Origin: a virus
Taxonomy: Duplodnaviria > Heunggongvirae > Uroviricota > Caudoviricetes
DNA: 26,847 nucleotides
IMG/VR virus record: IMGVR_UViG_2645727810_000007
Reading direction: 5' to 3' (one strand)
In this document: one piece after another, positions 1-7,753 of the stretch
Layout of the letters: the number at the start of each line of letters is the position of its first letter
Numbering within the stretch: position 1 is the first letter of the stretch
The notes under the pieces: generated by a model
The model's database searches: none
What the model saw: the letters and a program-made list of their open reading frames with translations, nothing else
Told to the model about the DNA's origin: nothing
Position numbers and translations under genes: made by a program

Positions 1-651
1 ATCCGCATAATTCATCGCTGCCGCTTTTGCTGTTGCAGCAAGCGTTTCAGATTCGGATACCCTTGATGATGTAAGTTGAACAATTCCTTTCTGTGTCGTA
101 GTTGAATCCTGAGTTTTGTTTTGCAAAGATTTTATGTCCGTATAGTTTTGCGCGACAGCATTAGCTGTGGCTGCAATATCCTCTGCACCCGATACCCGCG
201 ATGACGTTAACCGGACTAAACCCACCTGTGTTGTTGATGCGTTTTTAATACCAAGGTATGAAAGAATATCTTTCCACCCGGCACCATTGCTGTTTGGATC
301 AGATAGATTTCCTTCTGTTGTGTTAATGAATATTCTTTCCCCATCGTCCGAGATGAGCATCGCCCCTGACGGATATCCAGAAATCTCCGAAGCAAATTCA
401 GAATCAAAAGTATTCAGCGCCCCGGTGCTCGACCATCTACCAAGAGCCGAAAGTTCGTATAAAATTTGGTTCATATCCTGGCCTTTTGGCGGCAAACCGC
501 CAGCAGATTTCAGGATCATTGTTATTGGAGGAAACCCCTGTTCATACGATGCTGAGTTATCTCCTGCAGGGGTGGTTGGCAATATTGCCACTCTCTGTCC
601 ATTAACTCCAAATGGCTTAGGTTGTTTTTTAGGTGAGTCAGAACGATTCAT
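1..651 (-). CDS. Tail fibre protein, N-terminal 217 codons; gene continues beyond window start
   Basis: ATG at 651..649, 5 bp after the upstream stop. The frame is open to position 1 by my own translation (MNRSDSPKKQPKPFGVNGQRVAILP...). It contains phage tail-fibre repeat-like segments (TTQVGLVRLTSSRVSGAEDIAATANAV; KGIVQLTSSRVSESETLAATAKAA) resembling the P2 gpH repeat. Not in the ORF track because it is open-ended. Confidence 0.75.
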   Translation of the reverse strand, partial: MNRSDSPKKQPKPFGVNGQRVAILPTTPAGDNSASYEQGFPPITMILKSAGGLPPKGQDMNQILYELSALGRWSSTGALNTFDSEFASEISGYPSGAMLISDDGERIFINTTEGNLSDPNSNGAGWKDILSYLGIKNASTTQVGLVRLTSSRVSGAEDIAATANAVAQNYTDIKSLQNKTQDSTTTQKGIVQLTSSRVSESETLAATAKAAAMNYAD

Positions 652-653
652 GC

Positions 654-1292
654 TTAATTCCTATAAAATGTGCCGTCATTAAATGGATATGCATCTGTAG
701 CAAAACCAAAGTATGGGCTTACAATTTGTTTGATATTTACCTGAACTCCACTTGGTACAGGAGTCACATCGTAATTTGTTAAAATCGATTCTTCGTAGGG
801 AGCAAGTGAGAACTCAAAATTTATACCAATGGTCATATCTCTGTAATTGACACAATATGCTCTGCCTCGTTGATAAAAAAGTATTTTAAGAAATTTATTT
901 ATATCAGGAATGGTTGCCACACTGATGTTAGTAAAAGCCTTGCAGAGTATTAATGTTCTGTAAGCATCATCCCCAAGCCTGACATTCGTTGATTCCTTAA
1001 TGCCGCCGTAAAACGGAGAATTATTAAATGGTGCCGGGTAATCAGTACTCCCATCATCTGCTTCGCTAAATCCAAATGAATCGCTATCTATTGGCGCAAC
1101 AATATATCTGCTTATGCCAACAATTTTCCCCCAAATATCAAGCCCGAATGTTTCGCAGGTAGTTAAATCCCATACCTTTTTAATGAATTCCTCAGTGAAA
1201 TCATCAAGGCTCACTGCCTGGTTAAATGTGTCTATGATGGACAATAATTTTTTACTTGCTGAGTATTGGGTAAGTATTGTGTCTTCCCACAT
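654..1292 (-). CDS. Baseplate/tail protein, P2 gpI / Mu gp48-like by position
   Basis: 212-aa ORF with ATG at 1292..1290 preceded by a GAGG-type Shine-Dalgarno. Sits between the baseplate J-like gene and the tail fibre gene. Assignment is by synteny only. Confidence 0.45.
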   Translation of the reverse strand: MWEDTILTQYSASKKLLSIIDTFNQAVSLDDFTEEFIKKVWDLTTCETFGLDIWGKIVGISRYIVAPIDSDSFGFSEADDGSTDYPAPFNNSPFYGGIKESTNVRLGDDAYRTLILCKAFTNISVATIPDINKFLKILFYQRGRAYCVNYRDMTIGINFEFSLAPYEESILTNYDVTPVPSGVQVNIKQIVSPYFGFATDAYPFNDGTFYRN

Positions 1293-1302
1293 GCCTCACC
1301 CC

Positions 1303-2532
1303 TCACGATAAAGTTACGGTAATATCTGATTCCTGAATTGTCGGAACCTGGTCGATACCCATTGTTATTGCTGGCCCATAGGCTGATCCATCAATGGAGA
1401 CTTCAAGTGATAAAATCACAACGGTGTCAGGTGATATTGAAATAACCGGAGCGTAATACTTAGCGGCGTTAATGGTAGAGCCTATCCTTGCCTTCCCGAT
1501 CCCATCATAACCACCATTGAAAACTGATACGATCATGCTTTTCACTTGTGATGTGATATCACTAGGTGGATTAAGAGATCTATCCAGCTCAACGCTAAAA
1601 TAAACCCTCGTCGGAGTTGCTTTTTGCCACTGCATTACATAGGAAGGGTATGGAGGCAGATAGTTAACATTGTCGTAAACCGTGTACGAGGTATCTCCGT
1701 TCAGATTTGCTCCAGGGTTGTACGTCTGGAAAATTGACTCCGCTACATCCTCATCAGTTCCACCATACACACAAATGTAAATAGAGTGCGCCACCACAGG
1801 GAAGTTAGTAGCTCCCTGATTTACTGTGGCTGCAGTTCTGTTTGACCATACATAGGCATCCAGCACACCATTCGTAGCCAGCAAGGCAGATAGTGTCGAT
1901 GCGTCCTGATTGCGGCTATTTCTCGCGACCGACTGCTTGCGACGTGTTTCAAATGCAATACGTGATTCAACATCAACGCCAACAACGCCTGGGCTCGCGT
2001 TCGTGATCGCATCCCATCCAGATACTGCACGGTAAATCTGATTTAATGCACCTGCTGCACAGGGTATTGGTCCGGTTGTGTTATTTACAAACTGAACATC
2101 AATGCTTCCTGATGCTGGTATTGTTGCGATGTCGATAGACCGGTAAATATATCCATTGGTATCAATGGCTGTGCTTCCCGCGGGGATTGTCGTTCCGACC
2201 TGACCAATGCATGTTGCCGTAACAACTGTCCCCTGAGCAGCGATCCGTTCCATAAAGTAAATCCGGCCAATCCCGTCCTGGAATCTGCCAGTTGAAAAGT
2301 CAGGATTAATTTGATTAAACAAACAAAGAAGCTTGTCGTATTCCTGAGCGATAATTTCAGTATCAGACTGTGCGATCTGCCCTTGCGGTGAACTCAGTGA
2401 TTGACTTGCACCACCACCAAGAGCCGTTGACATGTCTGTAAGTCTTCCCGCCAGCACATCCGCTATGTCGGGAACTGAAAGACCGTTTTCAGTGATGGTT
2501 ACATCAGGAACAGCCGTATTTAATATCGTCAT
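1303..2532 (-). CDS. Baseplate J-like protein
   Basis: 409-aa ORF. Its ATG (2532..2530) overlaps the upstream stop as ATGA. Size and position upstream of the gpI-like and fibre genes fit the baseplate J / gp47 family. Confidence 0.55.
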   Translation of the reverse strand: MTILNTAVPDVTITENGLSVPDIADVLAGRLTDMSTALGGGASQSLSSPQGQIAQSDTEIIAQEYDKLLCLFNQINPDFSTGRFQDGIGRIYFMERIAAQGTVVTATCIGQVGTTIPAGSTAIDTNGYIYRSIDIATIPASGSIDVQFVNNTTGPIPCAAGALNQIYRAVSGWDAITNASPGVVGVDVESRIAFETRRKQSVARNSRNQDASTLSALLATNGVLDAYVWSNRTAATVNQGATNFPVVAHSIYICVYGGTDEDVAESIFQTYNPGANLNGDTSYTVYDNVNYLPPYPSYVMQWQKATPTRVYFSVELDRSLNPPSDITSQVKSMIVSVFNGGYDGIGKARIGSTINAAKYYAPVISISPDTVVILSLEVSIDGSAYGPAITMGIDQVPTIQESDITVTLS

Positions 2533-2888
2533 AAGGTGGCCTGTGCAATATTACCATTGATATATGTAACGCGGATTGTGCCGCGAGTTGTGCGTGTATT
2601 CTTGTCAAAGAAAACTGATGCCAGAGCATCCTCAACGACAGGTAATTTGAGTGCTTCAGCCTGCATTTTCTGAGCAATAAAACCAGGAGATGGTCGCCTG
2701 CCAAGAACTTCTGCCTTCCATGGAATCCCAAGCGTATTGTCGTAATAACACTCTCCAGAAAACACCAGGCACGCACTGGCGACATCCTGAGCAACAGAAT
2801 ATGATTCTTCTGCGATCGCCAGATTGCCATTTCCGTCAAGCGTCAAGTCCCACGTAGAAGTGTCCAGTTGCATAGTTCTGTATGTCAT
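2529..2888 (-). CDS. Small baseplate protein (P2 gpW / T4 gp25-like by position)
   Basis: 119-aa ORF, ATGA-coupled to the upstream gene at 2885-2888, immediately before the baseplate J-like gene. Confidence 0.45.
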   Translation of the reverse strand: MTYRTMQLDTSTWDLTLDGNGNLAIAEESYSVAQDVASACLVFSGECYYDNTLGIPWKAEVLGRRPSPGFIAQKMQAEALKLPVVEDALASVFFDKNTRTTRGTIRVTYINGNIAQATL

Positions 2889-3577
2889 GTCGGTTTATCC
2901 GTTGCATTGGAATTTATTGTTGCTCCACCACTTTGTACACCTGAAACAGAATGTTTGTGATTGTTATAGTTGTCCCTTAAATTTTTAACAGTAGATGACT
3001 GTGAACTTGCGTTATCCTGAATATCACCGCTAACTTTAAGTAAAGGAGTATTCATGTTGACTCCATCAGGAGCATCAATATTTAACGATGAACATTTAAT
3101 ACTTAGTGGGTTAGGCGTGGTTATGTTTATTGCACCATCAGCAAATTCAATGAATTGAGTAGGTGCAATATTTAATACCCCACCAAGATAAATTGCATCA
3201 GATTTACTGTGTCGCCTTTTGCTTCCAGGTACTGATTCTTTACGATTTTTTCTTACCAGTGATGTGTCTTTGTCGCATATCGCAATCAGACCAATATCAC
3301 CCGCCACAGGGTCCATAATTACAGCGCTGTTTCCTCTCTGCAACCGCCATACGGGAAGATCATATAAAACCGAGTTAGAAATCATTTTTCCTGTACGGTC
3401 TGTTCTGGTTAGTAAAGGAAGAGCGTCAACAACTAAATCCGGTGCTTCCCCCCTGACTTCCTGAACTCTCGCTAACTCAATGAAGAAATATCCAGACATC
3501 AGCATCTCAAAAATATATTCCTGAGATTGTGCCTCACTTACCTGAGCAGGTGTTGGAGTAAATAGTTGCTTATCCAT
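2885..3577 (-). CDS. Baseplate spike/assembly protein (gpV-like by position)
   Basis: ORF track gives 2885..3670, but the first ATG that does not run far into the upstream gene is at 3577..3575 (MDKQLFTP...), overlapping the upstream stop by 8 nt. Function is from gene order. Confidence 0.4.
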   Translation of the reverse strand: MDKQLFTPTPAQVSEAQSQEYIFEMLMSGYFFIELARVQEVRGEAPDLVVDALPLLTRTDRTGKMISNSVLYDLPVWRLQRGNSAVIMDPVAGDIGLIAICDKDTSLVRKNRKESVPGSKRRHSKSDAIYLGGVLNIAPTQFIEFADGAINITTPNPLSIKCSSLNIDAPDGVNMNTPLLKVSGDIQDNASSQSSTVKNLRDNYNNHKHSVSGVQSGGATINSNATDKPT

Positions 3578-4451
3578 TATTCTGTTGTGCCTCTGCTCTT
3601 TGTTCTGCTGTTCTGGCGGCAATACATATTGAGTGCCACGAACCATTTGGCATCCATGATGATAATTCATGCCGAACGGAGGTTAACTTATACCTTCCGC
3701 TTGCATGTGGTAGTTCTGTTTTGATATCCACATATCTTCCAATGCAAAGGAGAGATGAATATTGCGTCTGAAACATCAGTCCCCCATTTGAAAATACAGG
3801 ATATCCAACAAGTCCGTATTCTCTGGATATAAACGGAATTACATCGTCTCTGTTTTTTTCTGAAGGCCAGAACTCTACTTTTGTCGGTGGCGTGGCTGAC
3901 ATCGCCAGTCCATAATCTGAACAGACCCTATAAAGTTGCTCAAAAACACTTCCTTCAAAATGCGGACTTCCTGATGTTGTCATCCCTTTTACATTATTAA
4001 ACACAGCCTCATAACCTGCACTTGCACAAATGGATGAGATGACATCTTCAACACTTTGCGCACCCTGCGCTGTAAACGGGCTTGCTGGCATGTTCTGTAA
4101 ATCAACATTAGAAGAGGCTGTTATCATCAGACTGCTTTCAGGAGCAGAATTCATGTTTGCTATTGATGAAAGCATCGTGCCGGAGAAAACAAGAGAATCA
4201 TCAGCAAATACCTCAACATTTAACTTCTGACCTTCCCCAACAATACCATCAGCCTTCCCTGATATATCAGCAAGTCTTTCAATTCCTAACCCGTAAAGAG
4301 ATATATCAGCCTGAGCACCTCCCCGACCGGTAACAAAGTTCAGGGATACTGTTGACTTAACATTTCTGATAGAGATTTTATTGTTTCCATTTTTATCAAA
4401 TGCTGATGATTCATTCGTGAAGTCAAACCGAAGACTGTGATTTTTATACAA
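3570..4451 (-). CDS. Tail/baseplate hub-like protein (Mu P / P2 gpD position)
   Basis: Long ORF 3570..4559. Both in-frame Met codons lie inside the preceding gene. An in-frame TTG at 4451..4449 with a GAGGA Shine-Dalgarno 9 nt upstream overlaps the upstream TAA. Start is uncertain. Confidence 0.35.
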   Translation of the reverse strand: MYKNHSLRFDFTNESSAFDKNGNNKISIRNVKSTVSLNFVTGRGGAQADISLYGLGIERLADISGKADGIVGEGQKLNVEVFADDSLVFSGTMLSSIANMNSAPESSLMITASSNVDLQNMPASPFTAQGAQSVEDVISSICASAGYEAVFNNVKGMTTSGSPHFEGSVFEQLYRVCSDYGLAMSATPPTKVEFWPSEKNRDDVIPFISREYGLVGYPVFSNGGLMFQTQYSSLLCIGRYVDIKTELPHASGRYKLTSVRHELSSWMPNGSWHSICIAARTAEQRAEAQQNNG

Positions 4452-4746
4452 GCTCGTTTTCCTCGATGTAATACAACAAGTAACGGCTACCCAAGCCTTC
4501 CCATTGCGGGTCCGATTCCCCATCGTTATCAATGAAAATAAGGTCTCCCTTAAATCCAAGGTAGGAATATCTTACCATTTTATTCCCATACAGACATGGA
4601 ACGCCCTGCATAATTGGAACTTCATTAACAGTTAAATCCATGTACATAAAACTCTGTCGCTGAACAAGTTTTATATTACATTGCTGACCAGCCAGACTTA
4701 CCGAAATGGACTGAGATTTGCTGGGAAGAACAGATACTGTAATCAT
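4444..4746 (-). CDS. Hypothetical tail protein
   Basis: 100-aa ORF. ATG at 4746..4744 overlaps the upstream stop as ATGA (translational coupling), inside the tail gene string. Confidence 0.4.
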   Translation of the reverse strand: MITVSVLPSKSQSISVSLAGQQCNIKLVQRQSFMYMDLTVNEVPIMQGVPCLYGNKMVRYSYLGFKGDLIFIDNDGESDPQWEGLGSRYLLYYIEENELV

Positions 4747-5558
4747 GTACTCGCCTTAACTATATTTTTTGCAATATCTGCCGCTTTTTTTGTTGCGCTG
4801 TTTGTAACTTCGAGTATTGGTTTAGACACCGTATCAAGAGCACTCTGAAATTCAGTCGTGATTGTGCCGGAGATTTTTCCAGTGATTCCGCCAACAGATG
4901 ACTTCAGTGATGACCATGATTTACTTAGCTCATCGACAGTAGATTCCCTGGCTCCGCCATTGGTTATTTGCGGATCAACTCCTACATCTCCCTGTGACTT
5001 ATTGTTATCCGTTGGCTTCTGTTCCGACTGAGATCCAGAGAGGATAACCTCCATTTGCTGAATGACCTCCTGAAAATCAAGATAAACCGTCAGAAGAGTC
5101 ACCCCTTTTTGAGAGTTAACTTCGTAATAGTGGTCAACAAGGTCGAAACTCTCCAGAGTTTCCTTTGGCGTTTCAATGTCGTATGTTTTTGCAGAGGACA
5201 GCATCGTTTTGATTGTGTTCAGCGTGCTGTTCTGGCTTGTGAATGTTAGATCGAAAATATTCGGGATATTGCCGGAAAAACCAGTAAGACCATTTACGAT
5301 GATTGCGCATCTTACCCTGGCGGGTTCTTTAACTTTGTTGATGGACTGGTATTTCCCTTTCTCCACCGGAGCGTTTGTTATTTGCGCCCTGCCACTTGGC
5401 TGTACGGATGCCATACCACTGAACTCAAGAGCAACCTCGCCAGTTTCCCTGTCACGAATCACATACTGAGGATGCAGAACGCCGTCGATGATCGAAAGCG
5501 GAGAGCCACCACCGATAGCATTGAATATGTCTGCTGTGTTTAAATCGATTATGCCCAT
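4743..5558 (-). CDS. Tail protein, first gene after the accessory island
   Basis: 271-aa ORF. ATG at 5558..5556 with a GGAG Shine-Dalgarno directly downstream of a minus-strand terminator. No recognisable motif; assigned by position. Confidence 0.4.
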   Translation of the reverse strand: MGIIDLNTADIFNAIGGGSPLSIIDGVLHPQYVIRDRETGEVALEFSGMASVQPSGRAQITNAPVEKGKYQSINKVKEPARVRCAIIVNGLTGFSGNIPNIFDLTFTSQNSTLNTIKTMLSSAKTYDIETPKETLESFDLVDHYYEVNSQKGVTLLTVYLDFQEVIQQMEVILSGSQSEQKPTDNNKSQGDVGVDPQITNGGARESTVDELSKSWSSLKSSVGGITGKISGTITTEFQSALDTVSKPILEVTNSATKKAADIAKNIVKAST

Positions 5559-5570
5559 CTACTCTCCATT

Positions 5571-5595
5571 AAACAAAAACCCAGCCGAAGCTGGG
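5571..5595 (-). terminator. Intrinsic terminator after the KilAC-type gene
   Basis: Hairpin cccagc-cgaa-gctggg (5580-5595). On the minus strand it is followed by TTTTTGTTT (plus a-run 5571-5579). A T-run also follows on the plus side (5596-5605), so it may act in both directions. Confidence 0.55.
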
Positions 5596-5618
5596 TTGGT
5601 TTTTATAAAAAGATTTAA

Positions 5619-6344
5619 TTAGGCTGCGGTAGAAACATTAACTAGATTTCTCAATACTTCAACTCCTTTTGAGTTGTAGCGGAATGCTTCCACCTGTTTG
5701 CTGGAATGCGCAGATTTATCCAGGAAGAACTTCCCGTACTGCTCAGTTTTGAGGTTGTTTGCGTTAGCAATGCGACCACTCTTGTTTGCCGTTACTCCAA
5801 GCTGCTCTGCAACCTCCCCTGCTGAGTAGTAATGCTCTTCTATTGCCGGAAGAGGTATTGCATTAAAACCAACGAGCGGGTTGATTATACTTGCTGCCGC
5901 TGTCTGCTTTGCCTCAGGCGCAAGATTTGGCATCAGATCGAACAGATTGGTAACAGCTTCAACCGTCATTTTCAATGTTCGCGCTTGACGATACTCAACA
6001 AGTCCACTCGACGATTTACCGCTTTTAATGTGCGCTTCTTGCATACTTTCAAGTTTGTCTACAAGTGTTCGGCGAACTGCTTTAGATTCGCGAGCAGCAA
6101 CACGAAGCGCCTGCTTGATAGTCATGGAGATAACATCAATGTCAGCCCCGTTTTTCCGACCTACACTTTTTGTGTAGGTCTCGCCCTCCAATTCATCCTC
6201 AATTTTCTCGATGAATTTGTTGTTACGTACTGATGGCTCTCCACATAACTTGCGAGCTTCATTAACCATCATCAGAAGACTTTGGCTGTCAATGGTTTTA
6301 TCCGTGACAACGGATCCGATGTTTGCTACATTCTTCAAAGTCAT
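5619..6344 (-). CDS. Antirepressor-like protein, KilAC-type C-terminal domain
   Basis: ORF track gives 5619..6395. ATG at 6344..6342 has an AAGGAA Shine-Dalgarno. The C-terminal segment (YSAGEVAEQLGVTANKSGRIANANNLK...NSKGVEVLRNLV) resembles the KilA-C/ANT antirepressor domain; this is recalled from memory, not searched. Confidence 0.5.
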   Translation of the reverse strand: MTLKNVANIGSVVTDKTIDSQSLLMMVNEARKLCGEPSVRNNKFIEKIEDELEGETYTKSVGRKNGADIDVISMTIKQALRVAARESKAVRRTLVDKLESMQEAHIKSGKSSSGLVEYRQARTLKMTVEAVTNLFDLMPNLAPEAKQTAAASIINPLVGFNAIPLPAIEEHYYSAGEVAEQLGVTANKSGRIANANNLKTEQYGKFFLDKSAHSSKQVEAFRYNSKGVEVLRNLVNVSTAA

Positions 6345-6413
6345 TAGGCATTCCTTATGTGGTAGTAAGGGTGTGACATAGGCCGCCAGCAGCACACTGG
6401 CGGTTTTCTTTTT
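6339..6413 (+). ncRNA. Predicted sar-like antisense RNA B, antisense to the start of the KilAC-type gene
   Basis: Plus-strand extended -10 TGcTACATT (6324-6332), followed about 50 nt later by a strong plus-strand intrinsic terminator: stem ccgccag (6383-6389) / ctggcgg (6397-6403), loop cagcaca, then TTTTCTTTTT (6404-6413). The RNA would cover the start codon (6342-6344) and Shine-Dalgarno of the KilAC-type gene. Confidence 0.35.
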
Positions 6414-6432
6414 GCGCCGTCCGGCGCACCAA

Positions 6433-7059
6433 TCAATGAATCCATTCCTCGCCGCGCAGTTTTGCCAGCATTGGCTGAGCGTTCTTTACGACAAAATTGT
6501 TGGTATCAAGATTCTTCATTTCACGAAGAAGTGATTTCTTGGTTTCTTCTGACATATAGCGAGTCTCATATGCGATATCGTAAATCCTTCCTGAAAGCTC
6601 AGAACAAATTTGCTTCATTCCTGGGTAGATGTGTTTGCACATTTGTTGACTCTTCTCCATCCACAATTGTAAGTAGCAGAGATTAACCAGCTCTTCGTCA
6701 GTGAACTGTTTTGCAATCGGTGAGCATTCTGTCTGCCGATCCAAAATATCCAGCACCCAGCGGCGGAACTCTTTGGCTACCGGAGTGCGAGCAAACATCG
6801 CGATTAGGTGGGCACCGCGTAGTGAGAAAACTCGCACTTTTTTGCGATAATTTCCTGAGGTACTCACTTCGAGTACCTGAGTCATTCCGGCGCTAAACTC
6901 ATCGCTATACTTGTTATAAATCATTGTTACTGCACGACTATTTGCGCATTTAAGTGCAGATGCAATATTAGATGATGTAAACCAAACACCATGCATATCA
7001 CGGGTGGGCACCAACTCAACTCCGTGGAAGTTGTAATCTGATTTTGCTACAATATTCAT
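6433..7059 (-). CDS. Antirepressor-like protein with Bro-N domain
   Basis: ORF track gives 6433..7143. ATG at 7059..7057 has an AAGGAAA Shine-Dalgarno. The N-terminus (FNFHGVELVPTRDMHGVWFTSSNIASALKC...VRVFSLRGAHLIAMFARTPVAKEFRRWVLDIL) fits the Bro-N pattern. Lies directly downstream of the Arc-like gene, as ant does in P22 immI. Confidence 0.6.
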   Translation of the reverse strand: MNIVAKSDYNFHGVELVPTRDMHGVWFTSSNIASALKCANSRAVTMIYNKYSDEFSAGMTQVLEVSTSGNYRKKVRVFSLRGAHLIAMFARTPVAKEFRRWVLDILDRQTECSPIAKQFTDEELVNLCYLQLWMEKSQQMCKHIYPGMKQICSELSGRIYDIAYETRYMSEETKKSLLREMKNLDTNNFVVKNAQPMLAKLRGEEWIH

Positions 7060-7136
7060 GTTAGTTTCCTTGCATACGGTTACTGACATAGAGGCCCGGT
7101 TTGTGTTCGCGCACTGCCGGGCTTCACTATTTTTAT
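7060..7136 (+). ncRNA. Predicted sar-like antisense RNA A, antisense to the Bro-N gene ribosome-binding region
   Basis: Plus-strand extended -10 TGcTACAAT (7045-7053) just inside the Bro-N gene start. A plus-strand hairpin gcccgg (7094-7099) / ccgggc (7117-7122) followed by a U-rich tract (cuucacuauuuuuauu, 7123-7136) lies in the arc/Bro-N intergenic region. Geometry matches the P22 sar RNA. Confidence 0.35.
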
Positions 7137-7306
7137 TGGGCATTATCTCTTTCCTCTCTCAGGCTTTTAGCCAGTCGCTGCACAATCGCAGAGTTGATAG
7201 AAATTCCATCCATTTCAGCAACACGTCTAATCTCCTCCTTCATTCGCGCTGGCAAACGAAGCTGGAAACTTTGACTTTTACGACCTGTGTAAAGCACATC
7301 TTTCAT
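7133..7306 (-). CDS. arc: Arc-like ribbon-helix-helix repressor
   Basis: ATG at 7306..7304 with a GGGAGG Shine-Dalgarno (the ORF-track start at 7321 is GTG). SFQLRLPARMKEEIRRVAEMDGISINSAIVQRL aligns with P22 Arc (QFNLRWPREVLDLVRKVAEENGRSVNSEIYQRV). Confidence 0.7.
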   Translation of the reverse strand: MKDVLYTGRKSQSFQLRLPARMKEEIRRVAEMDGISINSAIVQRLAKSLREERDNAQ

Positions 7307-7328
7307 AAGTAATCCTCCCACAATGATA

Positions 7329-7381
7329 CCAACTTGGTTCTAGAACCAATTTAACACCATTTATTTTGATGTCAAGTTGGT
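7329..7381 (-). promoter_or_regulatory. Divergent immI-like control region: Pant-like promoter and palindromic operator
   Basis: Minus strand: -35 TTGACA (7375..7370), 16-nt spacer, -10 TAAATT (7353..7348), about 40 nt upstream of the arc ATG. Perfect 16-bp palindrome TTGGTTCTAGAACCAA at 7335-7350 overlaps the -10/+1. Flanking 9-bp inverted repeat accaacttg (7329-7337) / caagttggt (7373-7381). Confidence 0.55.
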
Positions 7382-7417
7382 GCTATTGTTTAGCGAACAT
7401 CTTTACGTTGAGGTCAT

Positions 7418-7738
7418 ATGAGCAAGTTCCCTAGTCATGAAATGGATAGGTTCAATATCAGGCTTCCTGCAGGAATGCGGGATGCTATAGCTGAACGAGC
7501 AAAACGTAACGGCAGATCAATGAACTCAGAGATTGTTCAGATACTGGAAGATGCCTTGAATGCAGAAAATACACTCGGGGAAATAGCAGACAAAATCAAC
7601 AGCGTCTCAGTTCCGCTAAATGTTGATGCGCTAGTTCAACTTCAAGCCCAGGTTATCGCCATGCAAAAAGAAATACAGGAAAAGTTCAGAGAGCAAAACG
7701 AAAAGTTGAGAGAACTGCTAAACAAAAAACCCACCTGA
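7418..7738 (+). CDS. mnt: Mnt-like ribbon-helix-helix repressor
   Basis: ATG at 7418 with a GAGG Shine-Dalgarno. FNIRLPAGMRDAIAERAKRNGRSMNSEIVQILEDAL aligns with P22 Mnt (FNFRMPMEVREKLKFRAEANGRSMNSELLQIVQDAL). C-terminal heptad-like tail. Divergent from the Arc-like gene. Confidence 0.75.
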   Translation: MSKFPSHEMDRFNIRLPAGMRDAIAERAKRNGRSMNSEIVQILEDALNAENTLGEIADKINSVSVPLNVDALVQLQAQVIAMQKEIQEKFREQNEKLRELLNKKPT

Positions 7739-7745
7739 CGGTGGG
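7721..7745. terminator. Terminator between the convergent mnt-like gene and the 7754..8722 gene
   Basis: Hairpin cccacc-tgac-ggtggg (7730-7745) overlaps the mnt TGA. On the minus strand it is followed by TTTTTTGTT (strong); on the plus strand by a short TTT (weak). Confidence 0.6.
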
Positions 7746-7753
7746 TTTCATAA

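Follow-up and report, generated by a model that had tools for sequence, protein, structure and literature searches.

Predicted sar-like antisense RNAs for both antirepressor-type genes of a P22-type immI cassette

The 26,847-nt stretch of viral DNA analysed here (the window; Caudoviricetes, IMG/VR record IMGVR_UViG_2645727810_000007) carries, at positions 5578–7738, a P22-type immI cassette composed of mnt, arc, ant and a second antirepressor-family gene (gene 2). Antirepressors decide whether a prophage stays silent, and their control bears on induction and on cross-talk between prophages. We consider it likely that each antirepressor-type gene of this cassette has its own short cis-antisense RNA gene, the product of which would block the ribosome site of that gene. 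As judged from sequence comparison, the RNA predicted for ant (RNA A) is a diverged member of the sar family and the positional and sequence orthologue of P22 sar. The RNA predicted for gene 2 (RNA B) represents a separate conserved sequence family with a sar-like cis-antisense design, wherein a convergent promoter, a terminator and coverage of the ribosome site are combined.

The putative promoter of RNA B, located by promoter scan on the plus strand at 6304–6332, lies within codons 5–14 of the minus-strand gene 2. It consists of a −35 element GTGACA (6304–6309), a 17-bp spacer, the TG of an extended −10 (6324–6325) and the −10 element TACATT (6327–6332). The predicted transcript of about 75 nt (plus strand, 6339–6413) includes an outer 5′ stem formed by nucleotides 6340–6343 and 6374–6377, and it carries the complement of the start codon (6342–6344) followed by the anti-Shine–Dalgarno sequence UUCCUU (6351–6356). 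It ends with a hairpin at 6380–6406 and a T-run (TTTTCTTTTT, 6404–6413), which together score as a terminator on the plus strand only. The extended −10 elements, hairpins and T-runs of both RNA A and RNA B had been described in a first-pass annotation made from the sequence alone, and all of them were found at the positions it gave. The same annotation held that no plus-strand coding gene exists for these terminators to serve, and we agree: the candidate ending at the B terminator, a mechanically called open reading frame (ORF) at 6211–6381, loses its start or gains stop codons in relatives. The B hairpin was also considered, and rejected, as a terminator for ant on the mRNA strand, where no T-run follows it. 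Directly after the RNA B T-run lie a short GC hairpin, GCGCCGTCCGGCGC, and a conserved block, GCGCC[AG]TCC (6414–6432). These two elements accompany the 3′ flank of ant genes of the Bro-N/P22_AR_C type; loci in which a different first gene stands ahead of the B unit lack them.

The design of RNA B is maintained among relatives of gene 2, which were sampled from 80 viral-contig loci and 34 genome loci, 10 of the latter encoding full-length relatives. Full-length genome relatives come from Serratia, Citrobacter, Kluyvera, Proteus, Dryocola, Erwinia, Buttiauxella and an unclassified Enterobacterales bacterium, as well as from a record titled Chryseobacterium. Even at 58% protein identity, the lowest among them, full-length relatives without exception retain the antisense-strand arrangement of GTGACA, 17 bp and TGnTAnAnT, with the start-codon complement 9 nt past the −10 element and then the anti-Shine–Dalgarno sequence, the hairpin and the T-run. 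In an alignment of 20 diverse leaders, the TG and the nucleotides T−12, A−11, A−9 and T−7 of the promoter are invariant.

The codons of gene 2 carry a further sign of this promoter. Of the 163 codon columns that differ in amino acid among 66 distinct coding sequences, only 6 show an invariant third base, and three of these six are promoter positions: codon 5 (N/T, always xxT), codon 7 (A/S/T, always xCA) and codon 12 (six residues, always xxT). Read as promoter, their third bases are, respectively, the A at position 4 of the −10 element, the T in the extended TG and the final A of the −35 element. Codon 6 is always GTA where it encodes Val and always TTA where it encodes Leu, and the adjoining Asn codon 8 alternates freely between AAC and AAT. 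Thus, this region appears to be dual coding, in that a predicted antisense promoter visibly constrains the codons of the gene that it would regulate.

The terminator of RNA B is supported by nucleotide covariation. Across 24 distinct RNAs, 95.8% of stem cells are paired and the 7-bp core is unbroken, and four pairs have changed on both sides (for example GCCGCCAG/CTGGCGGC, GCCGATAG/CTATCGGC, GCCAATAG/CTATTGGC and ACCAGCAG/CTGCTGGT). The observed covariation score was reached by none of 500 shuffles, and slid controls fall to 26–48% paired. The outer GUCA/UGAC stem, a region where the alignment is imperfect, is 86.5% paired with one compensatory pair. The T-run consistently lies on the antisense strand. 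Similarity among the loci ends directly after it, and at least five unrelated upstream contexts start there, so the conserved block coincides with the predicted transcription unit. Because promoter positions are invariant, the terminator has changed in a compensatory manner and the unit is present in all relatives examined, the proposal of the first-pass annotation that B is a sar-like unit is supported.

The same annotation had regarded a pair of such modules as unusual, and this view does not survive comparison with relatives. We gathered 80 loci encoding relatives of the window's ant and searched them with a model built from B (model R1, which scores 84.5 bits at B itself). All 80 have one match immediately downstream of ant, and in each an extended −10 (TGCTAnnnT) precedes the B-type hairpin by 41–57 nt. 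Conversely, 75 of the 80 viral gene-2 loci and nine of the 10 full-length genome loci have a match to a sar covariance model (R2, described below), positioned 0.7–1.1 kb upstream of gene 2. As far as sequence matches can tell, the tandem of A and B is the standard arrangement of this ant lineage and not a rarity.

What follows the B-type unit is more variable. The gene in this position encodes a relative of gene 2, an ORF6N protein, a Rha protein (Phage_pRha) or a KilA-N plus KilAC protein, and the genes found there span at least four antirepressor-type families. The PHROG 1726, ORF6N, Rha and KilA-N plus KilAC proteins have in common only their first 8–14 codons, MTxxN[VL]A[NV] (gene 2 codons 1–15, 6344–6300, and the equivalents in L127–L162), and these shared codons are the ones that bear the antisense promoter. 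Recombination joints seem to fall just inside the coding sequence, past the embedded promoter. It is conceivable, although we advance it only tentatively, that the B-type unit is a portable cassette whose promoter resides in a leader peptide of 8–14 codons, that recombination has grafted it onto these unrelated antirepressor-type genes, and that the resulting lock could act in trans on co-resident or incoming phages. If the unit is portable in this way, every second-position immI-moron gene would arrive with a private translational lock; if it acts in trans, there would be an RNA-based layer of cross-immunity between prophages.

Some relatives carry a further complete sar–ant module beyond gene 2. 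Additional sar-type matches were observed 1–2 kb past gene 2 in L054 (4796–4871, minus strand), L052 (4751–4827, minus), L047 (4159–4235, plus) and L150 (4984–5047, plus). The match in L054 has a Psar identical to that of P22, TTGCTATACT, together with an ant-like ORF starting MKSIATAV. Extra modules such as that of L054 indicate that one cassette can hold three antisense units.

RNA A occupies the arc–ant gap and, as the first-pass annotation proposed, resembles P22 sar. Its Psar-type extended −10, TGcTACAAT (plus strand, 7045–7053; TG at 7045–7046 and TACAAT at 7048–7053), lies within ant codons 3–5, aligns with the annotated P22 Psar TTGCTATACT and is present in almost all of 42 distinct ant leaders. 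The predicted RNA (plus strand, 7060–7137) would start at G7060, directly after the start-codon complement, a position assigned by homology with the 5′ end of P22 sar. It is composed of a 5′ hairpin (7060–7087), a terminator hairpin (7091–7125) and the tail ACUAUUUUUAUU, and its 3′ end overlaps the arc stop codon, as in P22. The minimum-free-energy fold (−33.3 kcal/mol, z = −4.76) places the anti-Shine–Dalgarno sequence UUCCUU in the loop of the 5′ hairpin. The T-run (7130–7134) is located about 5 nt past the stem of 7091–7125, a non-canonical layout that is also that of P22 sar. For comparison, the P22 record annotates sar at 15021–15090, the sar promoter at 15097–15125 and the ant start at 15091.

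Several sequence elements of this unit are common to the window and P22. They comprise the promoter core TTGCTAyAmT, its distance from the start-codon complement (ATTCAT), the initial bases of the transcript (GTTrGTTT), TTACTGACA as the 3′ arm of hairpin I and, around the terminator, the flanks GCCC...GGGCTTCAaCT. Leaders of the ant relatives grade continuously from the window sequence into P22-like ones, and via such intermediates the homology to P22 sar is detectable. The covariance model R2 was built from 26 distinct leaders, namely P22 sar and 25 ant leaders; it gives 57.6 bits to P22 sar and 82.5 bits (E = 9.8e-14) to RNA A, although the window's own leader is part of the model and thus matches by construction. 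In the MAFFT alignment of sar-family leaders, the 3′ arm of the 5′ hairpin is offset by one column between subfamilies.

The Rfam model for sar (RF00262, gathering threshold 43 bits) scores P22 itself at 97.8 bits but leaves the window unmatched, both at the gathering score and at E ≤ 10. Leaders of other ant relatives do pass this model, among them those of L161 (59.4 bits, 2431–2499), L127 (48 bits, 2431–2499) and L168 (45.2 bits, 1776–1845). Because these leaders are orthologous to that of the window, the failure to match RNA A appears to reflect too narrow an Rfam seed.

RNA A and RNA B had been described as a duplicated control module. This part of the first-pass annotation is not upheld, since the two models fail to cross-detect: R1 detects neither RNA A nor P22 sar, and neither R2 (at E ≤ 10) nor the Rfam sar model has a match at B. 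Significant local similarity between A and B is limited to about 24 nt at the promoter (ATCTGAT-TTTGCTACAATATTCA versus ATCCGATGTTTGCTACATTCTTCA, score 26), a score reached by three of 2000 shuffles and by no other segment of the window. In addition, a 3′ arm with the sequence UGACAUAG precedes the terminator in both RNAs. We therefore rejected the possibility that B is a recent duplicate of A. RNA B lacks detectable sar homology in sequence and structure and possesses the sar-like design, and the two RNAs perhaps share, along with that design, an old common origin.

Both predicted RNAs are perfectly complementary to a ribosome site, that of ant mRNA (AAGGAAACUAAC-AUG) or that of gene-2 mRNA (AAGGAAUGCCUA-AUG). 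The first-pass annotation had each RNA covering the Shine–Dalgarno sequence and the start codon. This is true of predicted RNA B, which extends over the AUG and codon 2, whereas predicted RNA A covers the Shine–Dalgarno sequence but not the AUG. In the mechanism we propose, an extended −10 promoter inside the first codons of the target gene would fire against the operon, and the RNA of about 75 nt would end at the hairpin terminator in the upstream intergenic gap. Pairing with the Shine–Dalgarno sequence would then block ribosome binding on the mRNA of the RNA's own gene, and the duplex may also trigger cleavage of the mRNA. We infer that both promoters fire, that the RNAs have exactly these ends and, by analogy with P22 sar, that pairing represses translation.

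A block of this kind would operate independently of which promoter had made the mRNA. Arc and Mnt shut only Pant, the promoter of the arc–ant operon, and the cassette stands in line with the late operon; each antirepressor-type gene would therefore need a translational block that does not depend on the promoter, given that late read-through transcripts would escape Arc/Mnt repression at Pant. In P22, transcription of arc and ant can also start at PLATE, and sar counteracts translation of this late transcript, arc being named as the target (PMC12111858). The sar RNA binds ant mRNA (PMC11016777).

Several observations weigh against this interpretation, most of them concerning RNA B. Folding, which the first-pass annotation had proposed as a check, yields the two hairpins of RNA A described above but favours RNA B only modestly over shuffled sequence (z = −1.86). 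A conserved inner 5′ hairpin for RNA B was sought and rejected, as RNAalifold retained the terminator and nothing else. Conserved Val-Thr codons underlie the conserved −35 GTGACA, such that the promoter signal is partly confounded by constraint on the protein, and reduced synonymous change is frequent at the 5′ ends of coding regions for reasons unrelated to antisense promoters. Neither Rfam nor annotated records mark an RNA at A or B. Finally, an L029-type subgroup of gene-2 relatives has a weaker −10 element (AATATT) and a poor T-run. In L029, L030, L044 and L045 (about 2425–2548, minus strand), the N-terminus and leader have been replaced, with a GTG start, TGCAATATT as the −10 element and a different hairpin, and no R2 sar match was found upstream. 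This subgroup may have lost or changed its antisense control.

A different account accepts that RNA B is made but has it act mainly in cis and not through the ribosome site. Its synthesis would interfere with transcription, or its polymerases would collide with those reading from Pant or along the late operon; alternatively, an RNase III site would arise and uncouple gene 2 from ant. The B promoter does converge on the operon, as Psar does in P22, the duplex of about 75 bp would suffice for RNase III, and the anti-Shine–Dalgarno sequence of the window's RNA B does not lie open in a loop but is partly taken up by a stem. However, a strong and conserved terminator about 75 nt downstream would yield a discrete small RNA, which better fits pairing in trans, and the region covered is always the ribosome site. 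The P22 homologue of RNA A, moreover, is described as acting on translation (PMC11016777, PMC12111858). We regard a predominantly cis-acting RNA B as rather unlikely.

It is also improbable that no RNA B exists. In that case the hairpin and T-run would be a mere insulator against stray plus-strand transcription, and TGnTAnAnT would follow from the conserved peptide MTxxN[VL]A[NV] together with constraints on translation initiation. The location of the motif within coding sequence is consistent with such an origin, as are the short N-terminal peptide common to otherwise different proteins and the reduced synonymous change noted above. Against it, the invariant third bases, in codons whose amino acid changes, fall exactly at the TG, the −10 element and the end of the −35 element, and Asn codon 8 varies freely. 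Moreover, the terminator has no other plus-strand promoter or gene to serve. The third-position pattern and the fixed distance between promoter and hairpin in the 80 ant loci both speak against an insulator without RNA B. A purely fortuitous coincidence of promoter-like and terminator-like sites is effectively refuted by the comparative sequence data. Single extended −10 matches are indeed not enriched in the window (eight found versus 14 expected); the sequence TGNTANANT occurs eight times on its two strands, three of them inside the cassette (A, B and Pant). In contrast, the exact 11-mer TTTGCTACAWT is found in the window only at A and B, B has the only strict terminator on the plus strand, and 53.7 kb of strand sequence contain a single strict composite of an extended −10, 35–95 nt and a perfect 7-bp hairpin with T-run, the one at B. 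Between genera, moreover, the sites retain their position, orientation and spacing and show covariation.

The P22 sar RNA (Rfam RF00262) is one of the closest known systems (Liao et al. 1987, Wu et al. 1987, Schaefer & McClure 1997, as cited in PMC2629481). RNA A matches it in locus, in the promoter core within the first ant codons, in both ends and in its two stem-loops, and differs in being too diverged for Rfam's narrow model. RNA B likewise has its promoter in the first codons of the target gene, with the core TTTGCTACAWT, a length of about 75 nt, two hairpins and complementarity to the ribosome site. Unlike P22 sar, it belongs to the operon's second gene, its predicted sequence takes in the start-codon complement, and it ends in a different, canonical terminator (GCCGCCAG...CTGGCGG plus T-run).

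Other small phage RNAs were compared as well. In phages P1 and P7, control of the icd–ant operon falls to the c4 antisense RNA, which too is a small phage RNA that silences an antirepressor gene at the level of translation. However, c4 arises by processing of the transcript on which its targets lie farther downstream, and it pairs with short repeated sites; it is not a convergent cis-antisense RNA with a promoter of its own inside the target gene. No Rfam family reached its gathering score in the window, and c4 was not among the weak matches over 5500–7900. The OOP RNA of lambda and P22, antisense to cII/c1, and the P22 a23 RNA are also short and convergent RNAs of lambdoid phages, with their own promoter and terminator (P22 annotation), but their overlap is with the 3′ end or the interior of the target, away from the ribosome site, and they lie in other regions. 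The match of R2 to the P22 oop region is weak and at the level of the terminator (18.5 bits, E = 0.23).

Scanning the window with Rfam, whether at gathering score or at E ≤ 10, yielded nothing at B and only weak terminator-level matches (symR at A with E = 0.43, and sroH and rsmX elsewhere). No RNA is annotated at B in the records of phages JEP4, phiKp_30 and KP12 or in RefSeq E. coli genomes, and the searchable literature yielded neither an account of a second sar-like RNA nor expression data for A or B. RNA A would accordingly be a new member of the known sar family, and RNA B a new variant of the sar kind from a family absent from Rfam. This points to a gap in annotation, wherein the Rfam sar model fails to detect most of its family and the B family is not represented at all. 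Our results suggest that sar-type control is no curiosity of P22 and reaches a second, predicted RNA family associated with many different antirepressor-type genes in Enterobacterales prophages.

The genes of the cassette are arranged as follows. The mnt-like gene (plus strand, 7418–7738; Pfam Arc domain, E = 1.6e-20) encodes a ribbon-helix-helix repressor and, as in P22, diverges from the arc-like repressor gene (minus strand, 7133–7306; Pfam Arc domain, E = 9.3e-12), the stop codon of which occupies 7135–7133. A Pant-like promoter found by promoter scan (minus strand, 7348–7375; TTGACA-16-TAAATT with an upstream TG) points into arc and would drive arc, ant and gene 2. Direct reading of the sequence revealed a perfect 16-nt palindrome, TTGGTTCTAGAACCAA, at 7334–7349, which overlaps the Pant-like −10 element. 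Its position between the divergent arc and mnt genes indicates that it is probably an Arc- or Mnt-type operator.

As the first-pass annotation stated, both minus-strand targets are antirepressor-type genes. The first, ant (minus strand, 6433–7059; ATG at 7059–7057), has Pfam Bro-N and P22_AR_C domains and belongs to PHROG 245. Gene 2 (minus strand, 5619–6344; 241 amino acids) has no Pfam match, and its assignment as an antirepressor-family gene of predicted function comes from its similarity to PHROG 1726, annotated "anti-repressor" (E = 2.5e-96). A bidirectional terminator after gene 2, detected by terminator scan on both strands (5578–5597), closes the cassette.

The cassette is situated inside a minus-strand late structural operon and has the same orientation. 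Outside it, ORFs of at least 120 amino acids are all on the minus strand, apart from a few that are overlapping or small. This placement resembles the "ant moron" of P22-like phages (PMC2629481). The distal part of the window (1–5600) encodes Dit-like and baseplate-type genes and gave no match by megablast against 50,697 phage records, whereas the immI cassette is common to the P22-like podovirus JEP4, Klebsiella phages phiKp_30 and KP12 and Salmonella phage SPN3UB. These findings together indicate that the cassette moves between unrelated virion types. A match to the region is present in 458 of 5426 complete E. coli genomes, and 12 of these contain 80% or more of it. One carrier of the cassette is E. 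coli 55989 (NC_011748, 2671537–2673613), at 94.5% identity.

Upstream of mnt, more moron cargo was observed. A P63C-domain gene (8722–7754; PHROG 2384, function not assigned) is followed by a strong minus-strand terminator (7749–7726), and a rightward ORF at 8932–9405 would encode a protein of 157 amino acids with a signal-peptide-like N-terminus.

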